From Nitrospiraceae bacterium (lineage in GTDB: Bacteria > Nitrospirota > Nitrospiria > Nitrospirales > Nitrospiraceae), in contig JBBIJI010000016.1 in the NCBI GenBank assembly GCA_037446055.1, positions 1-64,000 of the forward strand: a DNA stretch of 64,000 nt, written 5' to 3'. The position numbers and the translations under genes are program-made. Below, one piece after another: positions 29,417-64,000 of this stretch. Position 1 is the first letter of the stretch. Every line of letters begins with the position of its first letter. The notes under the pieces were generated by a model. It saw only the letters and a program-made list of their open reading frames with translations, was not told the DNA's origin and ran no database searches.

Positions 29417-29452
29417 CAAGTTCTGAGTTTTGAGTGTTGAGTTCTGAGTTGG
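29417..29452. repeat. family-1 low-complexity repeat (GAGTTCTGA/GAGTTTTGA/GTGTTGA units)
   Basis: Read directly: caagttctgagttttgagtgttgagttctgagttgg. Confidence 0.6.
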
Positions 29453-44650: not shown

Positions 44651-44695
44651 GGGGGGGGAGCTGCGCGCAATGTGTGGCTCCCCTGTCTTTTTTTA
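44651..44695 (+). terminator. rho-independent terminator after the multicopper oxidase gene
   Basis: Stem GGGGAGC/GCTCCCC with a 15-nt loop, followed by tgtcttttttt. Confidence 0.6.
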
Positions 44696-44713
44696 GAAGT
44701 TAGGAGTTTTTTT

Positions 44714-44790
44714 GAGTTATGAGTTATGAGTGTTGAGTGGGGGCACATGGAAGCTCAGAACCTTCAGCGCAGAACTCATAACTCAGAACT
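44714..44790. repeat. family-1 palindromic repeat element: gagttatgagttatgagtgttgagtgg ... cagaactcataactcagaact
   Basis: Read directly. The two arms are reverse complements built from GAGTTATGA/TCATAACTC units. Confidence 0.65.
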
Positions 44791-44808
44791 TTAGAAAAGG
44801 AGGCCGAA

Positions 44809-45738: not shown

Positions 45739-45746
45739 TGGGCAAT

Positions 45747-45822
45747 AGTCATTCGTCATTAGTCATTGGCGGGGGTCATCGAATTCTTTCACCAATGACC
45801 ATTGACCCTTGACCAGTGACGA
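45747..45822. repeat. family-2 palindromic repeat element (GTCATTNGTCATT / CCAATGACCATTGAC units)
   Basis: Read directly: agtcattcgtcattagtcattgg ... caccaatgaccattgacccttgaccagtgacg. Confidence 0.65.
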
Positions 45823-45837
45823 AAAGGCACAAGAGGC

Positions 45838-46746
45838 GTGGCAGGACCGACACTACATGCCGGATTTGTAAGCCTGATGGCATGGAGCCTACTGTCCGCC
45901 GTCGCGCAGGCCGATCACCTCACGCCGAAACATGACCCCTGGGCGCAGCCCTGGGAGCTGGAGCGGTTGGCGTTGCTGGAGGTTCCCGATGACATGGTGT
46001 TCGTGCCGGCAGGATCGTTCTTGATGGGCAGCGATCCTCGGGTGGATCGCGCGGCTGGGCCGCAGGAACAACCGCAGCGATCGGTCGTGCTCGATGCTTT
46101 TGCCATCGACCGGTACGAGGTCACGAACGTTCACTATCTCCGGTTCGTGTTGGCCACAGGGGCCACGTGGCCGCCGTATTGGACGCAGGATCCCTTCCCG
46201 GAGAAGCAGTCGCGGCACCCGGTCATTGGGGTGAGTTGGGAGGAAGCGGATCGCTACTGCCGGTGGGTGGGGAAGCGTCTTCCGACCGAGGCGGAATGGG
46301 AAAAGGCGGCGCGAGGGGGCGATGGTCGCATCTTCCCCTGGGGCGACGAGCCGGCGGGGTGGATCAAGAGCAACATCGCCCATCCGGGGTCCAAACGAGG
46401 CGTGAAGTATCCCCCGTTGGCGAACGTCGACCGGTATGAGCGCGGCGTCAGCCCTTACGGGGTCTACCAGATGGCGGGCAACGTGAGCGAATGGGTCGCC
46501 GATTGGTTTGATCCTGAATATTACCGGAAAGGAGTCAACGAGAACCCGAGAGGGCCGGCCGACGGCGAAGACAAGGTCTTCAGGGGAGGGTCGTGGAACG
46601 AGGACCCGGAGGTGGCGCGATCGGCCGGGCGGAATGCGGCAGCGCCGGACCACAGGAGTTATCTGATCGGGTTCCGGTGCGCGAGATCAGTCATAAACGT
46701 CAATGGTCAATTGTCAATGGTCAACGGAGGCGGACAAAGTCATTAG
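45838..46746 (+). CDS. FGE-sulfatase fold protein, single-Cys PvdO/NirV-like subfamily, secreted (copy 1); C-terminal 19 aa encoded by family-2 repeat
   Basis: GTG start. Signal peptide ends in AQA. Motifs RGGSWNEDP and GFRCARS. The tail VINVNGQLSMVNGGGQSH is translated from the repeat gtcataaacgtcaatggtcaattgtcaatggtcaac. Confidence 0.8.
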   Translation: MAGPTLHAGFVSLMAWSLLSAVAQADHLTPKHDPWAQPWELERLALLEVPDDMVFVPAGSFLMGSDPRVDRAAGPQEQPQRSVVLDAFAIDRYEVTNVHYLRFVLATGATWPPYWTQDPFPEKQSRHPVIGVSWEEADRYCRWVGKRLPTEAEWEKAARGGDGRIFPWGDEPAGWIKSNIAHPGSKRGVKYPPLANVDRYERGVSPYGVYQMAGNVSEWVADWFDPEYYRKGVNENPRGPADGEDKVFRGGSWNEDPEVARSAGRNAAAPDHRSYLIGFRCARSVINVNGQLSMVNGGGQSH

Positions 46747-46852
46747 TCATCGGTCATTGGCGAAAAGTCTCTCTTGCCACCCAATGACCGTTGACCAATG
46801 ACATCTTCTGCTCCAGTGACCAATGACGATTGACCGTCGACCAATGACCGAA
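46689..46852. repeat. family-2 palindromic repeat element (long copy, about 160 nt)
   Basis: Read directly: reiterated tgaccaatgac/gtcattggtca units on opposing arms. It overlaps the 3' end of the preceding CDS. Confidence 0.65.
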
Positions 46853-47875: not shown

Positions 47876-48406
47876 GTGAACCTGGTCGTCCATATCCCGG
47901 AAACGTCGGTCGAAGCGACGCCCTATGTGCAGACACTCATGAAACGGGCGCCGAGCTTCACGATCGAAGGGCAAGACTGGATCGCGATTTTCCCGCAATT
48001 GCCCGATGCCATCGATCTGGCGCTCCAGATCGTGGGTGAAAGCGTCCGCGTTCCGGACGCCTGGGCGAGCATGAACGGACGGCAGATCTCGAGCCTCCTG
48101 CGGCTGTGGGCGAGGCTGGAGTGTTACCGCGAGAGCCTCGATGCGCCGAGCCCTGAAGAGCACTGCCTTCGCAAGGCGGGCAAACACAATCTTCTGGAGG
48201 GCTGCTCGGGCCCGACCTGTCCCGTGTCTTGCCAATTTGTGTGCATGCCATGCCGCGCGGAGATTCAGAGTAGCGGTGTACCGCCCGTCGAAGGGCACCT
48301 CTCGCGCCTCGCAGTCACCGCCGAGGTGGAGTGGTGCCCCAATCTTCGCCTGCCCGAAAACCGGCGAGTAGCGAATAGAGAACAGCGAACAGCGAGCAGA
48401 GAATAG
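47876..48406 (+). CDS. hypothetical protein with Cys-rich C-terminal region (CSGPTCPVSCQFVCMPC); 3' end runs into family-3 repeat
   Basis: GTG-start ORF immediately after FGE copy 2. Seven Cys in 25 residues. The last 14 codons are repeat-derived. Confidence 0.35.
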   Translation: MNLVVHIPETSVEATPYVQTLMKRAPSFTIEGQDWIAIFPQLPDAIDLALQIVGESVRVPDAWASMNGRQISSLLRLWARLECYRESLDAPSPEEHCLRKAGKHNLLEGCSGPTCPVSCQFVCMPCRAEIQSSGVPPVEGHLSRLAVTAEVEWCPNLRLPENRRVANREQRTASRE

Positions 48407-48510
48407 CCATGGAAAAGCTGATAGCGAGTAGCTGATGGCCAATAGCGAGCAACTCCGAGCATCCTGCTCCTGCTGTTTTCTATTCGCTACCAGCTATTCG
48501 CTGTTCGCTG
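48364..48510. repeat. family-3 palindromic repeat element (AGCGAATAG / GAACAGCGA units versus CTATTCGCT / TCGCTGTTC)
   Basis: Read directly: gagtagcgaatagagaacagcgaacagcgagcagagaatagcc ... ctattcgctaccagctattcgctgttcgctg. Confidence 0.7.
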
Positions 48511-48672
48511 TCCCCATCATAGGCCGAATGGCCTATTCCCCTGCCTGACAAGAATCACATTGGATGCCGGAGGCAGTCAAGGCGCCTCTGCGAAAGATTG
48601 CGTAGGCTTGCGGCGCGTGTGGGCTGTCTCGATACATCGACAATTCGACACATCTTACAAAGGAGGAGCGTG

Positions 48673-49365
48673 ATGAAGAGATACGATCAGAGAGTGAGGG
48701 CCACGAGCCTGATCATCATGGTCTTGCTGGCTCTCGGGACCATGTTTGCGCCCTGGTCGGCCTGGGCGGAGGAGACCGGCAATATGGTGGTGTTCAAGGG
48801 CGGGTTCATGAATCTGAGCGAGGACCGCGGCAGGCAGATTTTTACCGACACGAATGGCCTCACGGGAGTCAACGGAGGCAACGCCGGGTGGTATGTCGGA
48901 GCGTGGTTGGACTTGGGCCTTTCCAAAGATGCCTGGGGTCTGATGAAGGGAATCACAGGGATAGGAGAAATCGGTTTGCAGTTCAACCGGATCAATTCAG
49001 CGAGAGTGAATAACACCGCTGGGAGCGTGGCTGCCCATACTGTCACCGGTATTACCGCAGTCGATCCTCAGGTGGTCCAACTCACCATGGTGACCATCGA
49101 CGTGGCGCCGAAGCTGAAGTTTATGGAGGGCAACGCGTTTCGGCCCTGGATCATTCCTGTTGGGTTGGACATCCACGTGATCAGCCCCCCCTCGAATCGA
49201 ACGCAATATCTCGACGTCGGCGTGCAATTCGGCGCGGGGTTTGAATATGCAGTCTGGAAGGCCTTCAAGGTTGGAGCGGATGCCCGTTACCACTTGACGG
49301 CTAACATGACCAACACGAACAACTCTTACTTCCAGGTCGGGCCGTACGTCGGGATTACGTTCTGA
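48673..49365 (+). CDS. outer-membrane beta-barrel protein (OmpW/porin-like)
   Basis: Shine-Dalgarno AAAGGAGG. Signal peptide ends in AWA-EE. Alternating amphipathic strands. C-terminal Phe (GITF). Confidence 0.65.
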   Translation: MKRYDQRVRATSLIIMVLLALGTMFAPWSAWAEETGNMVVFKGGFMNLSEDRGRQIFTDTNGLTGVNGGNAGWYVGAWLDLGLSKDAWGLMKGITGIGEIGLQFNRINSARVNNTAGSVAAHTVTGITAVDPQVVQLTMVTIDVAPKLKFMEGNAFRPWIIPVGLDIHVISPPSNRTQYLDVGVQFGAGFEYAVWKAFKVGADARYHLTANMTNTNNSYFQVGPYVGITF

Positions 49366-49371
49366 TGGTAA

Positions 49372-49515
49372 GAAGCGAATAGCTGGTAGCAGGTAGCGGA
49401 TTGCTCTCGAACAGAAGCGAATAGCTGATAGCGAATAGCGGGTAGCTCTGAACTTCTTGCTGCAAGCTGTTCGCTACTTGCTATTCGCTATTCGGAGCTG
49501 CTCGCTACTTGCTCA
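49372..49515. repeat. family-3 palindromic repeat element, followed by a 14-bp perfect hairpin (CAACGGACAAGGTGG / CCACCTTGTCCGTT at 49543-49585)
   Basis: Read directly. Confidence 0.7.
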
Positions 49516-49732
49516 GAAAAGGGGAAGGAGCCTTGCCCAGCTCAACGGACAAGGTGGGGGCGTTCCTCCTGCCACCTTGTCCGTTCCCCGTTTGGCCCTC
49601 AAGTGAAGGGCCAATAGTGCAGAGCGGGATCTCCGGTATCGAGTTATATTTCTTGGGGATAGATTCCTGAGTGGTCTGCTCTGAACCCCGAACTCAATTC
49701 ATAATTCATCATTCATAATTCAGAATTGTTTC

Positions 49733-50839
49733 ATGCACCCCCCTCCACGCCTCGTCTACTGGGAAACCACGAAGCGCTGCAATTTACGCTGCGCGCACTG
49801 CCGTGCAATTCCGCAAACGCAGTCGTCTCCGGACGAGCTGTCGTTGGCCGAAGGCTTCAGACTCATCGACGCGATCGCCGAAGTGGGGCAACCCATTCTC
49901 GTGCTCACCGGCGGTGAGCCGCTGCTCCGGCGCGATCTCTTCGACTTAGCGACCTATGGCGCGTGGCGAGGGCTGCGAATGGCTCTGGCCACCAACGGGA
50001 CGCTTGTCAACCGCGACATGGCCAAACATGTCGTCGAGGCCGGATTCAAGCGAGTGTCGATCAGTCTCGACGGGCCGGACGCCGAGACGCATGACCGATT
50101 CCGCCGGGTACCGGGCGCGTTTGATCAAGCGGTGGATGGATTCATTCATCTGAAGGAGCTCGGCATGTCGATGCAGGTGAATACCACCGTCACCCTGCAG
50201 AACCGGGAACGACTTGAAGAGATCTATGAGTTGGTGCGGAAGCTCGGCGCCGACGCCTGGCATCTATTTTTGCTCGTCCCGGTCGGGTGCGGGCTGGAGA
50301 TCATGCGGACCGCCCAGCTCACTCCACGGGATTATGAAGAAGTGTTGTATTGGATCGACGAACTCGCTCAAACCGAGACGATGGAAATCCGCGCAACTTG
50401 CGCGCCGCACGCGCAGAGGATTCGGCTCCAGCGGCAGGCGATTGTTGAAGCCGGCGTTGATTCCCAGTCCGGTGATCGAACGGGTCGAGTTTCTAACTCA
50501 GAACTCAGAACTCAAGACTCAGAACTCCGAGCTTCCCGTCGCGGCTGCCTGGCCGGAACGGGCATTTGCTTTGTGTCTTATCGCGGGGAGGTCTTTCCAT
50601 GCGGCTACCTCCCGGTGTCAGCCGGGAACGTGCGCCAGCAATCCTTCAAATCTATCTGGGAGGAGGCGTCCGTTTTCGAGGAATTGCGTGATCCGAACTT
50701 GCTGCTGGGGAAGTGCGGAGTGTGCGAATATCGAATCGTCTGCGGCGGCTGCCGCGCGCGGGCCTTCGGGCAGACGGGCATTTATCTCTACGAAGAACCG
50801 TTCTGCAATTATCTTCCTGGCTCGGCGAGGACTGAATAG
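49733..50839 (+). CDS. radical SAM protein with C-terminal SPASM/twitch domain (anSME/NirJ/PqqE-like maturase); carries an in-frame repeat-derived 13-15 aa insertion
   Basis: Radical SAM motif CNLRCAHC. C-terminal motifs GCLAGTGICFVSYRGEVFPCG and CGVCEYRIVCGGCRARAF. The insertion VSNSELRTQDSELRAS is encoded by aactcagaactcagaactcaagactcagaactccgagc (50495-50532). No Shine-Dalgarno at the first ATG, so the start is uncertain. Confidence 0.8.
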   Translation: MHPPPRLVYWETTKRCNLRCAHCRAIPQTQSSPDELSLAEGFRLIDAIAEVGQPILVLTGGEPLLRRDLFDLATYGAWRGLRMALATNGTLVNRDMAKHVVEAGFKRVSISLDGPDAETHDRFRRVPGAFDQAVDGFIHLKELGMSMQVNTTVTLQNRERLEEIYELVRKLGADAWHLFLLVPVGCGLEIMRTAQLTPRDYEEVLYWIDELAQTETMEIRATCAPHAQRIRLQRQAIVEAGVDSQSGDRTGRVSNSELRTQDSELRASRRGCLAGTGICFVSYRGEVFPCGYLPVSAGNVRQQSFKSIWEEASVFEELRDPNLLLGKCGVCEYRIVCGGCRARAFGQTGIYLYEEPFCNYLPGSARTE

Positions 50840-50882
50840 CGAGCAGCGAACAGAGAATAGCGAGCAGCGAACAGCGGGCAGC
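50834..50882. repeat. family-3 repeat element (tgaatagcgagcagcgaacagagaatagcgagcagcgaacagcgggcagc); short partner arm gagctattcgctagttcag at 50968-50986
   Basis: Read directly. It overlaps the radical SAM stop codon. Confidence 0.65.
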
Positions 50883-51083
50883 TTTATGACGCCCTTTCCT
50901 TGTCCTTCCCCCGGGGACCCGTTGCTCCCCAAGATGCAGCGGGTGATGGGGAGGGAAGGGTGGGGGTGAGCTATTCGCTAGTTCAGATGAAAATAGTGCC
51001 CGGGACGGGGACAGGCACGCCGCTGCGGCGAGCCGGTCCCCTTCGAGCAAGATCGAGGGTCGAGCGACGGACGGGCGAGGGGC

Positions 51084-51902
51084 TTACGCGGCATTTCGAT
51101 ACAGGTAATCGGCGCCCACCGGTAAATGACCCAGCCATTGGAAGAAACGAGTCACTTCTTCACCGCGGAAAATGGAGCCATGTTGGGGGAGCATGGCGGT
51201 AATCCGGTACCCGGCCAGCTTCTTGATCATCCCGGCGACGGCCCGGTTACAGGACATGTACCGTTGGTGGAATCCCTGCATGGCTCTGATATGCGCGTCC
51301 CAGTTGTCGATGATGAGGTGGAAGGCATTGTCTTTATAGACAGACGCCCCGACATCGCCGGTAAATAAGAATCCGCTCTCCGAATCGAATAGCAGAATAT
51401 TCCCGGGTGAATGGAGATACGGCGCGGAAATGCACTCGAGGCGCCCTCCGCTCTTCAGCGTGATCGTCGCTCCTTCGTCGCCCACCGGGATATAGTTCAA
51501 CCTATAACTCTTCCCCGTGACATCCCGTGACTCGTAATGCGGCATGAACCGCTGCCACAGAGAGGAAATTACCAACTGGATGTTTTCGTTCCACTTCACC
51601 CAGCTCGGGAATGACGCGCAGATGTCGGGGTCTTGGTGGCTGAAATAGAGGTGCGAGACGGCGCTCGGTGACATCAGGTAACAGACCTTCTTGAATACCG
51701 GGGGGAAGCGGTCGAAGCCGCCGGGTTCCAGTAGGTAGCCTGCTCCTTCATCAATAATCAGATACGAGTTGCACTCGATTTCCTCTCCGGTGGAGTGAGC
51801 GCCGACCCAATAGATCTTGTGCGAGTCACCGTCATAGAGAAGGATGGGTTGGTCGGGGTCAACTGGCGAGTTCTTGAGTTCAAGCAATGGAAGCTTGGGC
51901 AT
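51084..51902 (-). CDS. MBL-fold protein, flavodiiron/ODP-like diiron domain without flavodoxin module
   Basis: Motifs HSTGEEIECNSYLIIDEGAGYLLEPGG, FSHQDPD and ITAMLPQHGSIFRG resemble the N-terminal beta-lactamase-like domain of flavodiiron and oxygen-binding diiron proteins. Confidence 0.6.
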   Translation of the reverse strand: MPKLPLLELKNSPVDPDQPILLYDGDSHKIYWVGAHSTGEEIECNSYLIIDEGAGYLLEPGGFDRFPPVFKKVCYLMSPSAVSHLYFSHQDPDICASFPSWVKWNENIQLVISSLWQRFMPHYESRDVTGKSYRLNYIPVGDEGATITLKSGGRLECISAPYLHSPGNILLFDSESGFLFTGDVGASVYKDNAFHLIIDNWDAHIRAMQGFHQRYMSCNRAVAGMIKKLAGYRITAMLPQHGSIFRGEEVTRFFQWLGHLPVGADYLYRNAA

Positions 51903-52181
51903 GCGAACACCTCCTCATGATTGGTAATGGGGTTATGCCCGGCCTCCAGACGGCATCTTAGGCGAAGCACGCCGCGATGCAAAGCCAATTCACCTTTTGA
52001 ACTTCGGCAGACGCCGGAGATCGATCCCCGAGCAACTCCGAGTAACAGGCGTGGGCAGCGAATGTATGGCGCGAACGGCAGGCAGCGAATAGCGAGGACG
52101 ATTTGGTGAAGCATGATTCGGTGATCCGGTGGAGTAATGTGCGAAACTTCGCCAGATCACCAAATCACCAATTCATACTTT

Positions 52182-52967
52182 TCACGGTCCGAGGTCTCGG
52201 GCGCACCGGAAGCCGAGGTCAAAAAACGTGCTCGCCGGTCCGAAGTAGTTTCGGTTGGTCGAGCGCAGGTCATAGAGCATGTTGTACCAAGAGCCTCCGC
52301 GCGCGACCTTGCTTCCGCCGCGAGCGGGCCCCGTCGGATTCCGATCGGGACTGCTCTTGTAGTAATTCACGTCGTACCAATCTGCGACCCACTCCCAGGT
52401 ATTGCCCGCCAGCTCATAGATCCCGTACGGGCTCTTCCCCGGCTCTAGACTTCCCACAGGCAACAGCGTCTCATACCCGATCCACGTCGCGCCGAAGTTC
52501 GCGCGGAGACGCGTCGGCTCCTCGTTCCCCCATGGGAACCTTCGTCCGTCGGTGCCCCGCGCGGCTTTCTCCCACTCGGCTTCGGTCGGGAGACGTTTCC
52601 CATAGTGGCGGCAGTAGGCATCGGCGTCATGCCAGGTGACGCCGACGACCGGACGACTGCCGTCGGTGACATGGTTCACATCCTTCCACTTCGACGGCGG
52701 CTCGCGACCGGTCTCTTGCATGAATCGACCGTATTGGGCAGTCGTCACCTCGAACTTATCCATATAGAACGCATCGAGGGAGACTCGATGGACAGGTTTC
52801 TCATCCGCCTCCCACCCTTCACTGCCCATCGTGAATTCTCCGGCTGGAACGAGAACCATCGGGGCGCCGTCCTTTCCGGTGATCTCGGGTGATCGTTCCT
52901 GAGCAAGGGCAAGTGCCGTCCACGAAATGACTGTTGCGAGGAGCGCGGTGAAGATTGAGAGTCGCAT
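52182..52967 (-). CDS. FGE-sulfatase fold protein, single-Cys PvdO/NirV-like subfamily, secreted (copy 3)
   Basis: Motifs MVLVPAGEFTMGSE, WHDADAYCRHYGKRLPTEAEWEKAARG, RGGSWYN and GFRCARDLGP. Start trimmed to MRLSIFTALL (signal peptide). Confidence 0.8.
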   Translation of the reverse strand: MRLSIFTALLATVISWTALALAQERSPEITGKDGAPMVLVPAGEFTMGSEGWEADEKPVHRVSLDAFYMDKFEVTTAQYGRFMQETGREPPSKWKDVNHVTDGSRPVVGVTWHDADAYCRHYGKRLPTEAEWEKAARGTDGRRFPWGNEEPTRLRANFGATWIGYETLLPVGSLEPGKSPYGIYELAGNTWEWVADWYDVNYYKSSPDRNPTGPARGGSKVARGGSWYNMLYDLRSTNRNYFGPASTFFDLGFRCARDLGP

Positions 52968-53440
52968 GGGCGGCGCCGTGCGTCGACTCAAACGATATAG
53001 CGAGGTCGCGGGCGATACGCCCTCAATAAGCTTGGCCATGCAAATCGAACGCCGAAGGGTATTCATTTGGCATCCCTTCTGGGCCACCAGAAGTTCGACA
53101 GCTCATCGAGCAAGGTCGATTGCCTCGATGCGCTCGGAAACGGTGAACCATACATCATTCTCCGTTGAGGCTCTCTCGACGAACGCTTCATACTTACTTA
53201 ACACCGCCCATTCTCTACAGCCCCGCCAGCGAAGGATCTCAGCGATAGGGAGCTTAACATTCGGTCCGCCCAGCCTTCTGTGGCATTGTGCAGCAGCTCA
53301 ATGAGGGTGTTTGTAGCTCTTTGACCCAGAGACGTACTGCATCCGCGCGGCAAGTCCCGTGGAATATCTTTCAACACGCATGAATAGTTAGCTCATTCCT
53401 CGGCTTGCTCGTGATTACAGGTGACGAAGAGGTGTAGTCC

Positions 53441-54214
53441 TTGCAACCCAGGTTTCTTGAGTACGCGCTTGCAAAGTCTTGCGCAAGTCCACGAGGCAGG
53501 GGAGTGAGACCCAAGCATTGCCTCATTGAAGGCTGCGACAGTTGCGGTTTACGTAGCAAGGCTGTGCTGTGCAACCTCACCGGAGAAGATCTCGCCGGCT
53601 TCGAGAAAATCAAGCGCTCCCTGATGTACGAACCTCAGCAGACGGTCTTCTACGAGGGCCATGCCTGCCTGGGCTTGTACTTGCTCTGTGCCGGCAAGGT
53701 CAAGCTTACCCGCTCTTCGGTCCGCGGCCAGCGACAGATCGTGCGCATCCTAGAGAGCGGCGAACTGATCGAGAAGCACGCGTTTCGGGCCAAGGCCATC
53801 CACGAAGTCACCTGTGAGACCCTGGAACCATCCCAGATCTGCCTGATCGAAAAGGAGCCCTACATGGCGCTCATCCAGCGCAACCCTGGGCTGGCCTTGA
53901 GCGTGATCCAACTCCTAAGCAGTGAACTGGGCATGAATATGGACCAGCTCGACCAGTTCACCTTCAAGACCGCGCGCGAGCGCCTGGCGGGACTGCTCGT
54001 GGAACTGGGCGAACGATTCGGCAAGAAGGCGGACGGCGGGCTTCTCGTGGGAATCACGCTCAAACGCGAGGAGGTGGCTGAAATGGCGGGCATCACCGTC
54101 GAAACGGCCATTCGGCTCCTCAGCGCCTTTCGGGACGAAGGACTCGTCAACATAGACGGACGAGCGATCACCCTCCTCAAGCCGGATCGCCTGGCCCGCA
54201 TCGCACGGCACTAA
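53441..54214 (+). CDS. Crp/Fnr family transcriptional regulator with N-terminal Cys cluster
   Basis: cNMP-binding fold (FYEGHACLGLYLLCAGKVKL). C-terminal HTH (REEVAEMAGITVETAIRLLS). N-terminal CLIEGCDSCG...C cluster reminiscent of FNR. Start uncertain (TTG in the ORF track). Confidence 0.75.
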   Translation: MQPRFLEYALAKSCASPRGRGVRPKHCLIEGCDSCGLRSKAVLCNLTGEDLAGFEKIKRSLMYEPQQTVFYEGHACLGLYLLCAGKVKLTRSSVRGQRQIVRILESGELIEKHAFRAKAIHEVTCETLEPSQICLIEKEPYMALIQRNPGLALSVIQLLSSELGMNMDQLDQFTFKTARERLAGLLVELGERFGKKADGGLLVGITLKREEVAEMAGITVETAIRLLSAFRDEGLVNIDGRAITLLKPDRLARIARH

Positions 54215-54216
54215 TC

Positions 54217-54412
54217 TGATAGCGAATAGCGAACAGCCAGCAGCTAACAGCAAATAGCGAGCAGCGAATAGCTCCGAGCGGCGCCTCTTTCAGCAGAATC
54301 CCCCTTTCTTCCCTGTCTTGCCCGGCTTATACCACCTAACTCTTAGCTGTTCCTAGCATTTAGCTACTCGCTATTCGCTGACTTTCGGCTACGCGCCACC
54401 TGCTGCTCGCTG
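54217..54412. repeat. family-3 palindromic repeat element (arms 54217-54275 and 54343-54412)
   Basis: Read directly: gatagcgaatagcgaacagccagcagctaacagcaaatagcgagcagcgaatagc ... tagctactcgctattcgctg. Confidence 0.65.
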
Positions 54413-54577
54413 ATCCCGAGCTATAGGTCCAAAGACCCATTCCTAGGCTTTGAGAAGAATCATAAGCCGGACCGGCTAACCACAGTGTTGGCTTACCTCG
54501 TTTTCTTTACTGTGGGCGTCGAAAAAGAAGGGTGCGGGCCGAACGCATGACGATGGCTCCCTCCACAGAGCCGGCCA

Positions 54578-55105
54578 ATGATGAGGCGATCACGGCGCAC
54601 ACGTAAGGAAGCAGCAGTGGACCCCGTGGCCCTTCTGAAACGGGAACACGAGATGATCCTGGAACAGTTGCACATGATCGAGGCCACGATCGGACCGAAG
54701 AGCAAGAAAGGAGCTGCGCTGTTGGAGCCGGGTCGAAGCACGCTCTGCGAACTGTTCCGTTTTTTCACCGGACGAGTGGACGTGCACTACAAGCGGGAAG
54801 CGACGCTGATTTCCGCGCTCAGTCGCGTTGTTGGGCGTAAGAACGGAGAACGCGAACAATTCGAGGGCTTGCTCTGTGAGCATCGCGCACTGAAAGCGGA
54901 TGCGGCGAGCATTATGAAGCGACTTTCGAAACACACTGCAACCCCGTCCGTTGCCGACGGCGCCGATCGGTTGGGAATTCGGTCGTTCGTGAAGCGCTTC
55001 CGCAGTCATATTGCATGCGAGGAGCGCATTCTCTACGTGCTGGCCGGCATGCGACTGAACGCCGAGCAAAAACAGCGCGTCGGTCATCGCATGTTGCAGG
55101 TCTGA
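54578..55105 (+). CDS. hemerythrin-like (HHE cation-binding) domain protein
   Basis: Motifs LLKREHEMILEQL, HYKREATLI and ACEERILYV give the H...HxxxE...H...HxxxxD-type spacing of hemerythrin-like metal sites. The 5' end is probably shorter than the ORF track shows. Confidence 0.6.
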   Translation: MMRRSRRTRKEAAVDPVALLKREHEMILEQLHMIEATIGPKSKKGAALLEPGRSTLCELFRFFTGRVDVHYKREATLISALSRVVGRKNGEREQFEGLLCEHRALKADAASIMKRLSKHTATPSVADGADRLGIRSFVKRFRSHIACEERILYVLAGMRLNAEQKQRVGHRMLQV

Positions 55106-55109
55106 CAAT

Positions 55110-55202
55110 GCAGCGAATAGCGAACAGCCGGCAGCGAGTAGCAGGCAGCAGGCAGCTCAAATCGACAAGCTGCTAGCTACTCGCTACTCGCTATTGGCTA
55201 CC
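55110..55202. repeat. family-3 palindromic repeat element
   Basis: Read directly: gcagcgaatagcgaacagccggcagcgagtagcaggcagcaggcagc ... tagctactcgctactcgctattggcta. Confidence 0.7.
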
Positions 55203-55290
55203 TGAAGAGAAGAAGGGAGGTGAGCTGACGGCAACAGTGGTCCCAGGCACAGCCAGTAATCTGACAGCGAGCGTTTTGTAGAGAGGAGGA

Positions 55291-56499
55291 ATGATCATGA
55301 GAAGGACAAGAGGAATGGTCGTCGCGATGATGGCGCTCACCCTCTGCGCGTTTGCGGCGGGTGTCGCGTTTGCGGCCGACCCAGAAGTCAAGACGCACAA
55401 GCAACCCTATCCGGACCGATGGAACTCGATCAAAAACCCGCCGGTGAGCAAGTTCGGTTATCCACCTGATATCTGGGCCGCCGAGAACATGTCGTTCCGG
55501 GCGACCGGCAAGATCGTCGAATACTACCTGACGATCGAGCAGATCAAGTGGAACATCGTCGGCGACGTGTACGTGACGCAGTGGGCGTTCAACGGGCAGG
55601 TGCCCGGACCGCTCCTGACGGCGACCGAGGGCGACATCGTCCGCATTACGGTCAAGAACAACACGACCATTGACCACACCATTCACCCGCACGGGTTCTG
55701 GGTGCCGGTCAATATGGACGGCGTGCCGAACATCACCCAGTTGTCGATCCAACCGGGCGAGACGTTCGTGTATGAGTTCATGGCGAAGCCCTCAGGGCAC
55801 CATTTCTATCACTGCCACGTGAACGCGGCGACGCACATGGACATGGGACTCTATGGGTCCTTCGTCGTGTATCCGCCGGCTGAAGCGGCGAACGGGACGA
55901 ATGCGAACCAGGTGGCCGATCCTGCAGCCAGAATCGACCGGGACTACGTGATGATCCTGGACGAGGTGGACACGCGGATCGACGACGGCGAGAGCGGAGG
56001 CATGGAACTCGGCCATCCGAGGAAGATCGCCAACTTCAACTACTTCACGATCAACGGCAAATCCTTTCCCGAGACGCCGATGATCTTCGTGCGGGAAGGC
56101 GACATCGTGCGGGTCCGATTCCTGAATTTCGGTTACTGGTCCCATGCGATGCACCTGCACGGCCATGCGTTTGCGCAAGCCAGTGCCGAGTGCGATCGCT
56201 GTCCGAAATACTGGGAGTTCAGGGACGCGATGAACCTGAACGCCGCGCAACGAACCGACATCGTCTTTAAGGCCAACAATCCCGGCCGGTGGGTGTTCCA
56301 CTGCCACCGGGTGCCCCACGCGACGAATGACGGAGCCTATCCGGGCGGACTCCTGACGATCATCGAGTACGAGAACAACCCGTACCTGCCGGTGATTCCG
56401 CAGTTGCCGTTGCCGGGGTTCAAGCACATGGACGATCCGAAGACCATGAACATGTCGCTGTCGCATAAGGCGATCAAGAAGCAGCTCGCGGGCGAATAG
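55291..56499 (+). CDS. two-domain multicopper oxidase (secreted)
   Basis: Shine-Dalgarno GAGAGGAGGA. Signal peptide ends in AFA-AD. Domain 1 motifs HTIHPHG and HHFYHCHVNAATHMDMG. Domain 2 motifs MHLHGHAF and WVFHCHRVPHATNDG. No NirK-specific signatures. Confidence 0.8.
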   Translation: MIMRRTRGMVVAMMALTLCAFAAGVAFAADPEVKTHKQPYPDRWNSIKNPPVSKFGYPPDIWAAENMSFRATGKIVEYYLTIEQIKWNIVGDVYVTQWAFNGQVPGPLLTATEGDIVRITVKNNTTIDHTIHPHGFWVPVNMDGVPNITQLSIQPGETFVYEFMAKPSGHHFYHCHVNAATHMDMGLYGSFVVYPPAEAANGTNANQVADPAARIDRDYVMILDEVDTRIDDGESGGMELGHPRKIANFNYFTINGKSFPETPMIFVREGDIVRVRFLNFGYWSHAMHLHGHAFAQASAECDRCPKYWEFRDAMNLNAAQRTDIVFKANNPGRWVFHCHRVPHATNDGAYPGGLLTIIEYENNPYLPVIPQLPLPGFKHMDDPKTMNMSLSHKAIKKQLAGE

Positions 56500-56576
56500 C
56501 CGTAGAACTGGAACGGTGCTTGAGGAGGTGAGGAGCTCCCGCTCCTCCCTCCCGGCGTCGAGAGGAGGGAGAGGTC

Positions 56577-56903
56577 ATGAAAATGTCACGGTTGTTACTG
56601 GTCGCGATCTCCTGGACGATCCTGTTTGGTGGCGTGGCATTCGCTGATCGCGTGGTCCATTCCGGGAATGTCACCAAGATCAACAAGGACTCCGGGGCGG
56701 TCGAGATCGAGTTACGGAACGGGGGAACGAAGGCATTTACGGTGACGGACAAAGACATTCTGGCCAGTCCCGTGTGGAAAAAGCGGCTCAACGTCGGCGA
56801 CGGCGTGGACATCACGGCCGACGGCGACAAGGTCATCACGGTGCTTCGCCGGAATCTGCCGGTCACGATCCGGCCTGCGGAGACCGCAGCGGCTCCTAAA
56901 TAG
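56577..56903 (+). CDS. small secreted protein (108 aa), tandem paralogue A
   Basis: Signal peptide ends in AFA-DR. Mature region is more than 90% identical to the product of 57040-57372. Confidence 0.55.
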   Translation: MKMSRLLLVAISWTILFGGVAFADRVVHSGNVTKINKDSGAVEIELRNGGTKAFTVTDKDILASPVWKKRLNVGDGVDITADGDKVITVLRRNLPVTIRPAETAAAPK

Positions 56904-57039
56904 GGAGGTCAAGAGACGGGAACGGGAAGTTCGGAATGAGTCCGGACTTCCGCTCACCTCAAGCCAAAGTCAGTTTCCTAATCCTGCCCGACCGTCTAGT
57001 AGATCAAGCGGAAGATCGTACCGAGGGGGAGGTAGAAGC

Positions 57040-57372
57040 ATGCTGATGAAGCCTTCGAAAGTGTTACTGCTCGTGATCTTAGGTGTGATTCTATCCGGCG
57101 GAATAGCCTTGGCCGGCGATCGCGTGGTCCATTCCGGGAACGTCACCAAGATCGACAAGGATTCCGGGGCAGTCGAGATCGAGTTGCGGAACGGGGGAAC
57201 GAAGGCATTTACAGTGACGGACAAAGACATTCTGGCCAGTCCCGTGTGGAAAAAGCGGCTCAACGTCGGCGACGGCGTGGACATCACGGCCGACGGCGAC
57301 AAGGTGATCACGGTGCTCCGCCGGAATTTGCCGGTGACGATCCGACCCCCGGAGGCGCCGGCGGCGAAATGA
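57040..57372 (+). CDS. small secreted protein (110 aa), tandem paralogue B
   Basis: Mature part is near-identical (DRVVHSGNVTKIxKDSGAVEIELRNGGTKAFTVTDKDILASPVWKKRLNVGDGVDITADGDKVITVLRRNLPVTIRP). Confidence 0.55.
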   Translation: MLMKPSKVLLLVILGVILSGGIALAGDRVVHSGNVTKIDKDSGAVEIELRNGGTKAFTVTDKDILASPVWKKRLNVGDGVDITADGDKVITVLRRNLPVTIRPPEAPAAK

Positions 57373-57677
57373 ACGAGCTACGACTGGAAGACGAGAAGCT
57401 GATAGGTGACTAGAAGCCTGGCAGCCCTCTTTTCCTCCTTGCACGGACGGAGACGAATCGGCGTTCTGACGGAGAATTTGTTTGGTGCCGTTTGGAGCAG
57501 CGGAGAGACACCTGCTGATGCGAAACGCCGCAGTGCAATAGGGAAGTTGGGAAAAAAGATCGCTGAATTGTGAATGTGAGTAAAGGCATCACTTCTGCCA
57601 GACCACATGGAAGGCGCGGTCATCACCGGGTAGTGCGTGTGAGTCCGAAATTGAAAATGGAAAAAGGGGGGATGGCG

Positions 57678-57986
57678 ATGAAAAACATCATGCCGGTTTT
57701 ATTCATCATGCTGGTCAGCGGCTCATTGACCATGGCCATGGCCGAGACGAAAGCGGAACGAGCGAAGGGCGCGCCCGTCAAGATCGTGCAAGGGACGCTG
57801 AAAGAAGTCGATGTGAAGGGCAAGACTGCAACGGTCGAAATCGTTCAAGGTCAAGCGGTGAAGCTAAAGCTATCTGAGGAAGCTGCAGACCAATTGGACC
57901 GAGTCGGCAAGAAGGCCGAGCGCGTCGAACTCCGGTTGTCGGCCGATGATGTCGTGCAGACGGTGGCGGTAGGGACCGGGCCATGA
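57678..57986 (+). CDS. small secreted hypothetical protein (102 aa)
   Basis: Shine-Dalgarno AAAGGGGGG. Signal peptide ends in AMA-ET. Lys/Val-rich beta-type sequence. Confidence 0.4.
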   Translation: MKNIMPVLFIMLVSGSLTMAMAETKAERAKGAPVKIVQGTLKEVDVKGKTATVEIVQGQAVKLKLSEEAADQLDRVGKKAERVELRLSADDVVQTVAVGTGP

Positions 57987-58009
57987 CCAGGATCGTGGGG
58001 TTGTGAAAC

Positions 58010-58408
58010 GTGAAGGACCACATGATCCGGGGTGTGCTGTGCGGTGCGGTCTTGTCGCTGATGCTGGATGGCTTTGCTGGCTCTGCCGTCTGGGCCGAGA
58101 CGATCACGGTCTCCATGAAGGGCCGGGGCTTTCATCCGGGACGAATCGAAGTGGAGGTGGGAGACACCGTTCAGTGGATCAACGACGATACGGAGCTCCA
58201 CGAAGTGGTGAGCGGGAAGTCGCCGTTCGACCGGGAGACAGGAGTTCCCTTGAATTCCGGCACTCTCATGTGGGACCAGCGATACACGTTCACCTTTAGG
58301 AAACCGGGGACGTATCCGTATATGTGCGTCATTCATCGATCGCTCAGCGACGTGACGGGTGAACTGGGGATGGTGGGAGAAATCGTCGTGCGTGGAGAAC
58401 AACCATGA
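58010..58408 (+). CDS. blue copper protein (plastocyanin/azurin-family cupredoxin) 1
   Basis: Motifs VGDTVQWINDD..HEV (His ligand) and GTYPYMCVIHRS...GM (Cys, His, Met ligands). Confidence 0.75.
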   Translation: MKDHMIRGVLCGAVLSLMLDGFAGSAVWAETITVSMKGRGFHPGRIEVEVGDTVQWINDDTELHEVVSGKSPFDRETGVPLNSGTLMWDQRYTFTFRKPGTYPYMCVIHRSLSDVTGELGMVGEIVVRGEQP

Positions 58409-58791
58409 CTAACTTGATGAGAGTGGCACTGGCGGGTGCCATGGCCATTTTTCTACTGGTGGCATATGCAGCGGAGCGGTCTGAAGCCGGCACTGTGAAA
58501 GTATCCATGAAGGATCGGCAGTTCACCCCCGACGTGCTCAAGGTGAAGGTGGGCGATACGGTCGAGTGGGTCAATGACGATCAAGACGTCCACCAGGTGA
58601 TCAGCGGGAAAGATCTCAGTGATCCGAACCTCGCGAAACCGCTGGATGGGGGGACGTTGCTGCCGGGTCAGTACTATCTTTACAAGTTTGAGAAGCCTGG
58701 AACGTATCCCTATATGTGCGTCATCCACTGGTCGCTGCAGTCGATTTCAGGAAAGGGCGGCATGCTCGGGGAGGTGATCGTTGAACCCTAA
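58405..58791 (+). CDS. blue copper protein (plastocyanin/azurin-family cupredoxin) 2
   Basis: ATGA overlap with the previous gene. Motifs VGDTVEWVNDDQDVHQV and GTYPYMCVIHWS...GM. Confidence 0.75.
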   Translation: MTNLMRVALAGAMAIFLLVAYAAERSEAGTVKVSMKDRQFTPDVLKVKVGDTVEWVNDDQDVHQVISGKDLSDPNLAKPLDGGTLLPGQYYLYKFEKPGTYPYMCVIHWSLQSISGKGGMLGEVIVEP

Positions 58792-59287
58792 CAATGGTCA
58801 TAAAGTTCGGAGAGCCCGCACGAGCGCGCACCGGCTGGTGGCTGTCGTGGTGGGAGCGATCCTGGCAATAAGCGTGACAGGGGGGCTCGTTCAGGCTGCT
58901 GAGCCGTCTGCAGGTTCGGAGAGCAAGAAAGGACCTTCCAGTGACTCATCGGTCGGTCAGCGGGCAGGCTTCGATATTTTTTTGATGGGGATCGTGACCA
59001 AGACCAACTACGAGGCGGCCCCGATCAGCATCACGATGAAGGTGATCGAGGGGGCGATGGAGCGGCTGGGACAAAACATAGAGGTGATCATCGAGACGGA
59101 TGAGGCGATCAAGCATTTCAAGAGAAGGGTGAGGGTGGGACAGGAGTTGGACACGCGCGTGCGGGTGGGCACCGACGGCAAGTTTTACATGGTGACGTCG
59201 CAACGTCGCGGCATCCCCTCGCGGGAGTTCAAGGGCGGGCCGACGATCGACGAGAGTGTGAAGAAGTTGCTGGAGTCCGGAGGATAG
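58781..59287 (+). CDS. secreted hypothetical protein
   Basis: Hydrophobic signal-like segment VAVVVGAILAISV. Start codon uncertain (TTG in the ORF track). Confidence 0.4.
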   Translation: MNPNNGHKVRRARTSAHRLVAVVVGAILAISVTGGLVQAAEPSAGSESKKGPSSDSSVGQRAGFDIFLMGIVTKTNYEAAPISITMKVIEGAMERLGQNIEVIIETDEAIKHFKRRVRVGQELDTRVRVGTDGKFYMVTSQRRGIPSREFKGGPTIDESVKKLLESGG

Positions 59288-59355
59288 GATCGTTCAGAAG
59301 TGTTCAGGGTGCAGTAGAACCGATGAAGGGTTTTTTAACCTAAGGAGGGTGTGCG

Positions 59356-60177
59356 ATGAACAAGTGGGGACTGATCGGCGTATGTGGGATAGCGACAGCA
59401 GCCTGGCTTTCCGCCGGGGTGGCAGAGAGTTTTGCTGCCGGGACCATAAGCGGGACAGTGACATTCGCGGGTAATGCGCCTGCGAACCCGAAAATTCGCA
59501 TCGCGAAGAACGCGGACTATTGCGGGACCGAGATCGAATTACCGGTCCTGGTGGTGAATCCGAAGAACAAGGGCGTCCAGTGGACGGTCGTCTATCTGGA
59601 AGGCGCCACCGGCGGGCCGACGCAGGAGAAATATGATTTGGAGATGGGCGATCCCAAGAAGAAGTGCGACTTCGTGCAGCATGTCGTCGCGATGGTCAAG
59701 AACAAAAACATTTCAATGAAGAACACCGATCCGATTCTGCACAATCCGCACACCTTCAACGATAAACACGCAACGCAGTTCAACGTCGCGCTCTCGGAAA
59801 AGGGTCAGGTGATTGAGCGGAAGTTGCGCGCGGGCGGACTCAATAAACTCCAATGCGACTCCCATGTGCATATGAACGGCTATGTGTATACGTTCGACCA
59901 TGGGTATTTTGCCGTCACCGACGGGGATGGCAACTTCAAGATCGGCGATGTTCCTCCGGGCAAGTACAAGGTCGTTGCCTGGCACGAGAGCTGGAAAGCG
60001 AAGAACATGGAGGATGTGACTCGCTCGATCAAGGAAGCGGAAGAGAAGATCAAAGCAGGCCATATCAAGCCGGAAGATGCCCAACTTGAGCGTCCGAACT
60101 ACGAAGACCACATCGTGCTGACCAAGGAGATCGAGGTGAAAGACGGCGAGGTCAAGGTCGCGTTTGAACTGAAATAA
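59356..60177 (+). CDS. secreted cupredoxin-like protein (C-x2-H-x2-M site) with C-terminal beta-sandwich domain; paralogue of 44809-45738
   Basis: Shine-Dalgarno TAAGGAGGG. Signal peptide ends in AAG-TI. Motifs QCDSHVHM and DGNFKIGDVPPGKYKVVAWH. Shares the N-terminal TxSGxVT motif with the paralogue. Confidence 0.7.
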   Translation: MNKWGLIGVCGIATAAWLSAGVAESFAAGTISGTVTFAGNAPANPKIRIAKNADYCGTEIELPVLVVNPKNKGVQWTVVYLEGATGGPTQEKYDLEMGDPKKKCDFVQHVVAMVKNKNISMKNTDPILHNPHTFNDKHATQFNVALSEKGQVIERKLRAGGLNKLQCDSHVHMNGYVYTFDHGYFAVTDGDGNFKIGDVPPGKYKVVAWHESWKAKNMEDVTRSIKEAEEKIKAGHIKPEDAQLERPNYEDHIVLTKEIEVKDGEVKVAFELK

Positions 60178-60189
60178 ACCCAGCTTGGG

Positions 60190-60265
60190 CGAACAGCAAG
60201 TAGCTGGCAGCTCGTAGCGGGCAGATGATTCCGGGCTGTCCGCTATGAGCTGTTCGCTCAGCTCA
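60190..60265. repeat. family-3 repeat element (gaacagcaagtagctggcagctcgtagcgggcag ... cgctatgagctgttcgctcagctc)
   Basis: Read directly. Confidence 0.6.
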
Positions 60266-60283
60266 TTGAGGAGAAGAAAGAAG

Positions 60284-60477: not shown

Positions 60478-60501
60478 TGAGGCGGGAGGCCGAGGTCTTA
60501 C

Positions 60502-60571
60502 GAGTTCTGAATTCTGAGCTAGGAGTTCTTGCTGACAAGTCAGAACTCAAACCTTTCAATTCAGAACTGCT
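60502..60571. repeat. family-1 palindromic repeat element (cgagttctgaattctgagctaggagttcttgc ... gtcagaactcaaacctttcaattcagaactgc)
   Basis: Read directly. Confidence 0.65.
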
Positions 60572-61837: not shown

Positions 61838-62838
61838 CCAGGATTGAGGAGCGAGGGCTCAGGATTGCGGTTCCTGAGGCCGACGCTCAGTCCTCGGCAC
61901 TCAATAGTCAGTGCTTGTCGAGGGCGCCGTTCTATTCCGGCGGGCAATACTTGCGGGAGCAGTTCCCGTTCCGGGTTTTCAAGATCGCGGTAGACGCCGG
62001 CTTCAACTGTCCGAACCGCAACGGCACGAAGGGGCACGGGGGGTGCATCTATTGCAACAACGCCAGCTTCAGCGCCAACAGTCGCACGATTCGCGTTCCG
62101 CTCGGCCGGCAGATCGAGGACGGAATGCGGTTCTATCAGGATCGGCTGCAAGGCGAGAAGTTCATCATCTACTTTCAGGCCTATACGAACACGTTCGGCC
62201 CGGTGGATTACCTGCGCACGGTCTATGATCAGGCGCTGGTGAATCCCGCCGTCGTGGGCCTGTCGATCGGGACGCGTCCGGATTGTGTGCCGGACGCGGT
62301 CCTGGATCTTCTCGCGGAGTACGAGCAGCGCACACACCTGTGGCTCGAATTGGGCCTCCAGAGCAGCCACGATGCGACGCTGCGGCGTCTCAACCGACGC
62401 CATACCTATGCGGAATTCACTGATGCCGTGCGTCGAGCCAAGCAGCGAGGACTCCGTGTGTGTGCGCACGTGATTCTCGGACTTCCGGGAGAGTCGCGGT
62501 ACATGATGCTGCAGACGGCGGAGCGGCTGGCGCGACTCGGGATCGACGGGTTGAAGCTGCATCACCTCTATGTGGCGAGGGACACGGCGCTCGAGCGCGC
62601 ATACCGGCGGGGGACGATTCGGGTCCTTGCGTTGCCGGAATATGTCTCGTTGGCCTGTGACTTTCTCGAACGCACCCCTACCGGGGTCGTCATCCAACGT
62701 GTGACGGGCGAGGTGGCCGAGGATTACGTGGTGGCCCCCCACTGGGGCGTCACCAAACTGCAGGTGGTCCATCGAATTCACGAGGAATTCGGACGGCGGG
62801 GAACGAGGCAGGGAAGCCAGGCGCCTTCGGCGAATTGA
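61834..62838 (+). CDS. radical SAM protein, TIGR01212 (YhcC-like) family
   Basis: Motifs FKIAVDAGFNCPNRNGTKGHGGCIYCNN and GLKLHHLYV are characteristic of this family. Start at the ATG at 61834 (ATGA overlap). Confidence 0.8.
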   Translation: MTRIEERGLRIAVPEADAQSSALNSQCLSRAPFYSGGQYLREQFPFRVFKIAVDAGFNCPNRNGTKGHGGCIYCNNASFSANSRTIRVPLGRQIEDGMRFYQDRLQGEKFIIYFQAYTNTFGPVDYLRTVYDQALVNPAVVGLSIGTRPDCVPDAVLDLLAEYEQRTHLWLELGLQSSHDATLRRLNRRHTYAEFTDAVRRAKQRGLRVCAHVILGLPGESRYMMLQTAERLARLGIDGLKLHHLYVARDTALERAYRRGTIRVLALPEYVSLACDFLERTPTGVVIQRVTGEVAEDYVVAPHWGVTKLQVVHRIHEEFGRRGTRQGSQAPSAN

Positions 62839-62840
62839 GA

Positions 62841-62885
62841 ATTCTGAATTCTGAATTTTCGGAGACGGCCAATTCATAATTCGCG
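62841..62885. repeat. family-1 repeat element (gagaattctgaattctgaatttt ... ccaattcataattcgcg)
   Basis: Read directly. Confidence 0.6.
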
Positions 62886-63008
62886 CCGTCTTATTCTGAG
62901 CGCGCGTTGGGAAGGGGCGAATGTGCCACCTCTTCTCGGGGGAAGGGAGTTTAATGACGGCCTCCTTGGACTTCTTTCCCCCCTTAACTGGCCAAGAAGG
63001 AGGATGCA

Positions 63009-63941: not shown

Positions 63942-63975
63942 AAGTGACGAGTGACTGGTGACAAGTGACGAGTGT
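63941..63975. repeat. repeat element at window edge (GTGACGAGTGAC / GTGACAAGTGAC units), related in style to family 2
   Basis: Read directly: gaagtgacgagtgactggtgacaagtgacgagtg. Truncated by the window end. Confidence 0.45.
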
Positions 63976-64000
63976 GGCGTGCAACACAAGGCGGGAAACG

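Follow-up and report, generated by a model that had tools for sequence, protein, structure and literature searches.

Tandem heptanucleotide arrays, mostly in inverted pairs, in the intergenic gaps of a copper-oxidase gene cluster of Nitrospiraceae

Heptanucleotide repeats have been known since 1990, and to our knowledge neither the reason for a unit of 7 nucleotides (nt) nor any function of such repeats has been established. Repetitive extragenic palindromic (REP) sequences are defined palindromic units of 20–40 nt with a conserved sequence, mobilised by REP-associated tyrosine transposases (RAYTs), and those of Escherichia coli can serve as stabilisers of mRNA 3′ ends. The present study concerns repeat elements in the intergenic gaps of a gene cluster of a Nitrospiraceae bacterium, carried by the first 64,000 nt of contig JBBIJI010000016.1 (assembly GCA_037446055.1), and this whole stretch is referred to as the window. 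The elements are heptanucleotide simple-sequence arrays of the kind described in cyanobacteria as short tandemly repeated repetitive (STRR) sequences, here found in a Nitrospiraceae genome.

Heptamers are the most over-represented class of long simple sequence repeats in many bacteria. Calothrix PCC 7601 carries three heptanucleotide repeats, according to a citation given in PMC4692102. In Xanthomonas, the repeat GGGAATC forms approximately 180 intergenic arrays per genome of 2–26 units each (Rehm et al., 2015; PMC4692102); some of them occur as plus/minus pairs able to form stem-loops, and arrays located between the same genes in two species vary extensively in length and sequence (PMC4692102). 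TAACTGA arrays are known from the intergenic regions of marine Beggiatoaceae, cyanobacteria, and Bacteroidetes, which are distant phyla (MacGregor, 2015; PMC4679880), where they share spacers with arrays of other heptamers and are absent from the orthologous spacers of close relatives (PMC4679880). In Nostoc, a GAC(C/T)AAT repeat of eight units lies upstream of recO, and a binding partner was proposed for it, though not identified (bioRxiv 10.1101/2022.06.06.494920). The arrays described here belong to this known but unexplained kind, together with STRR, Xanthomonas GGGAATC, and Beggiatoaceae TAACTGA, and are a new member of it; no link between Nitrospira and heptamer repeats was found in the literature searched.

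The dominant family was described in an earlier note on this DNA, under the name family 3, as built from reiterated words of 8–10 nt. Its unit is in fact 7 nt long, AGCGARY (AGCGAAT or AGCGAAC), and GCGAATA, GCGAACA, GCGAGCA, and GCGAGTA are its phases. Tandem Repeats Finder (TRF) returned period 7, with super-periods of 14, 21, and 42, in all tracts of the family, and a lag-autocorrelation scan of the window found 33 tracts of period 7 compared with five of period 6, one of period 8, and none of periods 9–12. Higher-order duplications of 14, 21, and 42 nt occur within the arrays. The degenerate two-unit pattern AGCGARYAGCGARYAGC, with at most one mismatch allowed, has 23 matches in the window, all of them within 48370-55199, and none in 100 dinucleotide-preserving shuffles, so the words are not a chance feature of the composition. 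The window sequence of 49440-52839 recurs with 100% identity in an independent Logan assembly (L129) made from the same sequencing run, which shows that the arrays are not assembly artefacts; exact alanine dehydrogenase and radical-SAM (rSAM) sequences were also recovered in short Logan contigs of run SRR11582173, and an exact look-up of the multicopper oxidase gave no record.

The earlier note spoke of at least eight copies; its list holds seven, and repeats are present at all seven, here numbered E1 to E7. Its description of opposed arms forming long imperfect hairpins holds on folding for six of them (48362-48513, 49372-49515, 50833-50988, 54217-54412, 55110-55202, and 60186-60266), in which an AGCGARY arm is followed 5–90 nt later by an RYTCGCT arm to give hairpins of approximately 80–200 nt with predicted energies of −44 to −74 kcal/mol and z-scores of −2.6 to −6.4 against shuffles. 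The seventh, E4 (52030-52096), is a family-3 remnant of degenerate AGCGAAT words on the plus strand between two minus-strand genes, and consists of a single decayed arm; it has neither a partner arm nor a hairpin, and its z-score on folding is +2.7.

E1 (48362-48513; −62.2 kcal/mol, z −4.9) has its left AGCGARY arm at 48362-48407, further units of the same sense at 48416-48446, and its right RYTCGCT arm at 48468-48513, and the open reading frame (ORF) upstream of it, 47876-48406, ends at a TAG stop within the array. E2 (49372-49515; −74.2 kcal/mol, z −6.4) begins 6 nt past the stop codon of a gene for an outer-membrane-protein (OMP)-like product and contains an internal 42-nt duplication of six units. 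E3 (50833-50988; −73.1 kcal/mol, z −4.1) has a left arm at 50833-50883, which holds the stop codon of the rSAM gene and a perfect 21-nt duplication, and a short right arm at 50966-50988. E5 (54217-54412) starts 2 nt past the stop codon of the Crp/Fnr regulator gene with an eight-unit left arm at 54217-54275 and closes with a right arm at 54352-54412, while E6 (55110-55202; −43.7 kcal/mol, z −4.1) starts 4 nt past the hemerythrin stop codon. E7 (60186-60266; −50.4 kcal/mol, z −6.3) occupies the spacer from the stop codon of a 273-aa gene to the ribosome-binding site of a 61-aa gene.

The window holds at least five heptamer families, which besides family 3 are CTGAGTT, GTCATTG/GTCAATG, AATTCWG, and AGTGACG, and inverted, paired arrays make up 11 of the 16 heptamer elements, with single arms at the remaining five. 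As the earlier note had seen, the elements are built from short reiterated words in the intergenic gaps of the 44–60 kb island and are missing from the first 29 kb: period-7 arrays occur at 0.02 per kb in 1-44.5 kb vs. 1.03 per kb in 44.5-64 kb, and an array is present in 1 of 26 intergenic gaps of the former vs. 13 of 18 of the latter (Fisher p = 2e-6). The array-rich part is a co-directional cluster with copper-oxidase genes. Its products comprise a 1648-aa protein carrying a multicopper-oxidase domain, CarboxypepD_reg proteins, three proteins with an FGE-sulfatase domain, an OMP, two radical-SAM proteins, a Crp/Fnr regulator, a hemerythrin, a two-domain multicopper oxidase, and cupredoxins. 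The first 44 kb carry housekeeping genes and are almost array-free. Among named sequences, those closest to the alanine dehydrogenase and rSAM proteins come from metagenome-assembled genomes of Nitrospiraceae/Nitrospira.

Within the cluster, the arrays are set closely against stop codons. Fifteen of the 16 window arrays are intergenic or overlap only the end of an ORF, one lies inside an ORF, and in 11 of 13 cases the start of the element is −53 to +11 nt from the stop codon of the preceding gene. Five genes have their stop codon inside an array (46746, 48406, 50839, 62838, and 63941), and the last residues of those five proteins are thus repeat-encoded. At the other side, four hairpins finish 14–18 nt short of the following start codon, with the Shine-Dalgarno sequence left uncovered. 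As the unit length is not divisible by 3, an array with TAG or TGA closes every frame. Both off-frames are closed at a median of 40 nt after array-bearing genes vs. 95 nt after the others (p = 0.0005). The earlier suggestion that the elements could be terminators does not hold: the terminator scan found no U-tail or T-run after any heptamer hairpin, and the sole canonical strong terminator-like site of the region (44654-44693) is a separate structure. Apart from a tRNA, the window gave no Rfam family at gathering score, and relaxed thresholds over 44-64 kb returned just spurious miRNA-hairpin matches far below threshold.

The same cluster was compared in relatives, namely, a JGI contig of 59.5 kb that carries the whole cluster (L130; flanking genes 79–93% identical to the window at the nucleotide level), GCA_016207025.1 (L132), GCA_964635345.1 (L133), GCA_037442105.1 (L134), and two metagenome contigs (L124 and L121), all with the same gene order. 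The order of the whole cluster is kept in L130, L132, L133, and L134, including where elements are absent, shorter, or of another family. Because gene order is the same with or without arrays, the elements arrived after the cluster was built and did not assemble it, which rejects their proposed role as recombination hot spots in the making of the island. Array density in the four cluster-bearing relatives is 0.4–0.6 per kb, and the housekeeping flank on the L130 contig (L247) carries no arrays. Family-3 copies are not limited to the window either, as orthologous copies are present in L130, L134, and L124 and AGCGAAY arrays in many phyla.

Arrays gain or lose whole 7-nt units or multiples of them, and a given site may hold none, one arm, a hairpin, or another family. 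The left arm of E5 has eight units in the window and two in L130, which in the alignment is an exact 42-nt (six-unit) indel, with L134 intermediate. After the 273-aa gene (the E7 site), L121 has no array and a 17-nt spacer, L130 has the left arm only, and the alignments give a full hairpin in the window, L124, and L134. The gap of E1 in L130 is without an array, and the conserved sequence picks up again at window position 48519. E2 has a near-identical ortholog in L134 (368-507), the left arm of E3 is homologous to L130 11099-11139, and E6 has a diverged ortholog in L130 (14285-14370) and none in L121, which retains the same genes and has no arrays at orthologous gaps. The boundary of one insertion was read from the raw sequences, as the MAFFT alignment misplaced it: the TGAGTTA ... 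TAACTCA hairpin at 44707-44793 (z −6.0) is a clean insertion of approximately 92 nt, with the tail of the terminator on one side and the ribosome-binding site on the other, where L130 lacks the hairpin and has ...GTTAGGAG directly joined to AGGAGGCC, and it adjoins sequence resembling its own unit. Turnover of arrays between related Nitrospiraceae genomes is rapid.

Replacement of one family by another was observed at several positions. The GTCATTG ... CAATGAC hairpin at 45739-45823, which occupies the whole spacer from stop codon to ribosome-binding site in the gap between the CarboxypepD_reg and FGE genes, is matched by GGCGAGA in L130. At the 3′ end of the first FGE gene, a nested GTCAATG/GTCATTG hairpin (46694-46850; −80.4 kcal/mol, z −11.0) covers the final 53 nt of the FGE-sulfatase ORF, whose stop falls within the array, and L130 has a CGTGAAG hairpin there. 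The OMP–rSAM gap carries AGCGAAT in the window and L134, an AGCYNNC hairpin in L130, and a GGCAATA hairpin in L132. The AGTTCTG/AATTCTG hairpin at 60497-60570 (z −3.6) is absent in L130 and L121, and its place in L134 is taken by a GAGGCGA hairpin. In the gap between the second rSAM gene and the TPR gene, an AATTCTG hairpin (62829-62885), the first unit of which includes the rSAM stop, corresponds to a GTGATCC hairpin in L124 and a CAGCAGT/GCTGAAA hairpin in L134, and one and the same conserved 75-nt sequence follows the heptamer hairpin in all three. From the stop codon of the TPR gene, an AGTGACG array runs on the plus strand (63940-63981; a partner arm may be hidden by the end of the window), and the array there in L134 is GGTGAGG. 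The spot immediately ahead of the cupredoxin gene differs in unit number within one family, with two CGTGAAG units (TGTGAAACGTGAAG; 57990-58009) in the window and a four-unit CGTGAAG array in L130 (17172-17202).

The same exchange has taken place within a coding sequence. In ORF 49733-50839, a plus-strand AACTCAG array (50490-50533) codes for SNSELRTQDSELRAS, the linker that joins the radical-SAM core of the rSAM/SPASM protein to its SPASM domain; in the relatives, this linker is encoded by CGTGAAG in L130 (10716-10750) and L132 (10732-10757) and by CAGCACT in L133 (10772-10809). One unit of the CGTGAAG version (L130 and L132) has TTA in place of TGA, by which the frame stays open. The linker array could act as a switch, since a slip of one unit would shift the frame. 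The alignment of the protein to structures in the PDB did not span the linker region. Two further single arrays complete the set, both on the plus strand. A CTGAGTT/AGTTCTG array at 29417-29452, starting 11 nt past a stop codon, is the sole array in the first 44 kb, and an AATTCAT array at 49692-49729 ends 3 nt ahead of the rSAM start codon; the latter is in the Shine-Dalgarno position of the rSAM gene and resembles the start-proximal TAACTGA arrays of Beggiatoaceae.

Beyond the lineage, a scan of a genome collection with AGCGARYAGCGAAYAGC returned at least 120 loci, and the matches listed came from Acidobacteriota, Alphaproteobacteria, Bacteroidota, Planctomycetota, Chloroflexota, Patescibacteria, Gemmatimonadota, Nitrospiraceae, and others. 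Among these at least 120 matches listed, approximately 100 lie in a true AGCGAAY tandem array, and 19 have an opposed array within 200 nt. Head-to-head AGCGAAT ... ATTCGCT hairpins also occur in Mesorhizobium, Bradyrhizobium, Xanthobacteraceae, and Rhizomicrobium, at loci of Hyphomicrobiales and other Alphaproteobacteria (L112, L060, L110, L101, L053, L028, L038, and L085), and the architecture is accordingly not specific to Nitrospiraceae. The G-rich arm comes first in 12 vs. 4 cases at Nitrospiraceae loci, which are not independent of each other, and in 34 vs. 18 in other genomes, a trend only. In viral contigs, three perfect AGCGAAT units were found in 39 stretches, two permutations of the same composition in 22 and 11, an octamer analogue in two, and a hexamer analogue (coding) in 37. 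With AGCGAAT only 2–4 times as common as its permutations and the octamer rare, these counts indicate that tandem heptamers are favoured in general, in agreement with earlier reports. AGCGAAT as a privileged heptamer was rejected on the same 2- to 4-fold figure.

The reading preferred here, to which a probability of roughly 0.6 is given, is that the elements are STRR-type heptamer arrays that arose by slippage and inverted duplication and that likely act through intercistronic RNA hairpins. A 7-nt seed beside or including a stop codon would have been amplified by replication slippage, and the opposed second arm would have come from a strand-switch (inverted) duplication or have been copied from a neighbouring array. 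As both arms are tandem repeats, they could pair in many registers, and a hairpin would outlast further slippage. Arrays may then persist in the only DNA that is unconstrained, from the stop codon to the next ribosome-binding site or regulatory sequence. In the transcript, the predicted product is a stable stem-loop without a U-tail, for which the likeliest role would be that of an intercistronic 3′ barrier or processing structure setting the relative stability of cistrons in a long co-directional cluster; the closing of all three reading frames soon after the gene would be a by-product. An intercistronic hairpin role is plausible from the predicted folds, and the putative mRNA-stabiliser role proposed in the earlier note is possible. 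Some local copying is also suggested by the presence of the same family in seven consecutive gaps and by the identity of the first 18 nt of E5 and E6.

Several points weigh against this reading. The mismatches of the arms show no G-U bias on the transcribed strand (26 G-U vs. 20 A-C), and arms match their own partners only marginally better than they match the arms of other elements (permutation p = 0.076; own partner first in 3 of 6), so that nothing shows selection on structure. Single-arm arrays occur, and hairpin formation is not obligatory. Slippage alone, moreover, leaves unexplained why one family fills seven neighbouring gaps, why the family at a site changes between relatives, and why the unit has 7 nt. 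The lack of strand bias and of arm-specific matching would be expected if the arrays were neutral by-products of heptamer-biased slippage wherever DNA is unconstrained, with hairpins and frame closing incidental. The fast gain, loss, and family turnover between relatives, the retention of the same genes by L121 without arrays at the orthologous gaps, and the frequency of tandem heptamers of several arbitrary sequences in viral contigs compared with the octamer analogue agree with such an origin. It is nevertheless held to be unlikely, since arrays are strongly concentrated in one cluster in five genomes despite 26 usable housekeeping gaps in the flank of the window, the same gaps are re-occupied by different families, and paired inverted arrays outnumber single arms among the window elements.

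The filling of many neighbouring gaps by one family within a genome, together with the unrelated heptamers at orthologous gaps and at one ORF position between flanking genes that are 78–92% identical, would also fit an active process that writes, copies, or homogenises arrays within each genome, or a genome-specific factor that recognises steps of 7 nt, a proposal that is regarded as distinctly improbable. Another reading is that the arrays are recognition tracts for a protein, for instance one of the cold-shock or OB-fold type, that moves along RNA or single-stranded DNA one heptamer at a time, each family marking a regulon, or that they are written by a dedicated enzyme. Genome-specific families that recur at many sites of one cluster, an enrichment in this cluster common to the relatives, the binding partner proposed for the heptamer repeats of Nostoc (bioRxiv 10.1101/2022.06.06.494920), and the binding of one heptamer per protein by CspB, as cited in PMC4679880, speak for it. 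It is given little credence, as no candidate protein was identified, the arrays are internally degenerate, unrelated heptamers or a complete lack of arrays are tolerated at orthologous sites, and the inverted layout would bury the single strand in a duplex. The least credible origin is that of miniature mobile elements of the REP/REPIN or miniature inverted-repeat transposable element (MITE) type, copied between intergenic sites by a transposase acting in trans, although clean presence/absence differences between relatives, one family in many neighbouring gaps of a genome where the orthologous gaps of other genomes have other families, the common start of E5 and E6, and the occurrence of the same heptamer in many phyla and viral contigs could be taken in its favour. 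Family-3 copies share only 62–86% identity over 36 nt and range from 81 to 196 nt, so no conserved fixed-length palindromic unit of the REP/REPIN kind is present; the boundaries compared with L121 and L130 have no defined ends, no terminal inverted repeats besides the arrays themselves, and no target-site duplication; the differences between orthologs are whole 7-nt units; and the 50 longest window ORFs scanned (short ORFs left out) contain no transposase, integrase, or reverse-transcriptase domain.

Some other features were noted in the same DNA. The spacer remaining downstream of E1 and E5 is conserved in relatives, and it consists of a palindrome of the ATAGGCC-N4-GGCCTAT type followed by a Crp/Fnr-like box (TGAC/TTGAG-AAGA-ATCA) at 48519-48560 and 54421-54465, upstream of the OMP and hemerythrin genes and kept in L130, L132, L133, and L134. 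This module is probably the operator to which the Crp/Fnr regulator, the product of 53441-54214, binds. The loop of E3 holds a separate G/C-rich hairpin (50890-50965), CCCTTCCCC...GGGGAGGG, several like which occur in L132, and a similar G/C-rich hairpin at 62908-62982 (GGGAAGGGGCGAATGTGCCACCTCTTCTCGGGGGAAGGGAG...), which follows the variable heptamer hairpin, is conserved in L124 and L134 at approximately 90% identity; together, they look like a second, non-heptamer class of repeats. Tandem repeats of other unit lengths are an 8-nt unit, CCAAATCA, repeated three times at 52152-52175 between two minus-strand genes, and a 32-nt unit repeated twice at 1214-1275 within ORF 885-1718. Two small ORFs in tandem (56646-56893 and 57118-57365; 108 and 110 aa), neither with a Pfam match, share 93% identity over 248 nt, as expected of a gene that was duplicated locally and recently. 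The housekeeping region also encodes, on the minus strand, a PIN-domain protein (295-879) and a protein with a DpnII/MboI-type restriction endonuclease domain (30370-31617).

The locus offers a compact natural experiment, in which at least six Nitrospiraceae genomes keep approximately 20 genes in the same order while individual spacers hold no array, a single arm, a hairpin, or another heptamer, so that the birth, expansion, and replacement of arrays can be compared. For annotation, it matters that the C-termini and stop codons of five genes come from a repeat and that one protein linker is heptamer-encoded and would be shifted in frame by the slip of a single unit. The hairpins, in turn, provide concrete targets for 3′-end mapping in cultures of nitrite oxidisers.

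Compared with the described systems, the window elements are closest to the STRR sequences of Calothrix and Nostoc, with which they share tandem 7-nt units joined head to tail, a mostly intergenic location, several co-resident families per genome, and a unit number that varies between relatives. They differ in that the host belongs to Nitrospiraceae and is not a cyanobacterium, as the nearest named protein relatives indicate, in that AGCGARY is not a classic STRR unit, and in that most window arrays are inverted pairs set against stop codons. The likeness to REP and bacterial interspersed mosaic elements (BIMEs) remarked on in the earlier note applies to position and shape, since REP, BIME, and REPIN elements of Proteobacteria are likewise imperfect palindromes of intergenic regions, often follow a stop codon inside an operon, and form genome-specific families; however, the window elements have no conserved palindromic core or fixed unit beyond the heptamer, their copies are unequal in length, and no RAYT was found nearby among the ORFs scanned. 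Xanthomonas GGGAATC and Nostoc GGGGAYT are G-rich and quadruplex-forming, whereas AGCGARY cannot form a quadruplex, and inverted pairs, a minority among the heptamer repeats of those genera, are the rule in the window. The TAACTGA arrays are direct, with one inverted case reported, and lie mainly just upstream of start codons, a placement shared in the window only by the array at 49692-49729. The GTCATTG/GACCAAT family of the window (45739-45823) has its heptamer in common with the recO repeat of Nostoc, and we take it to be the same as that of STRR2, TTGGTCA (Mazel et al., 1990).

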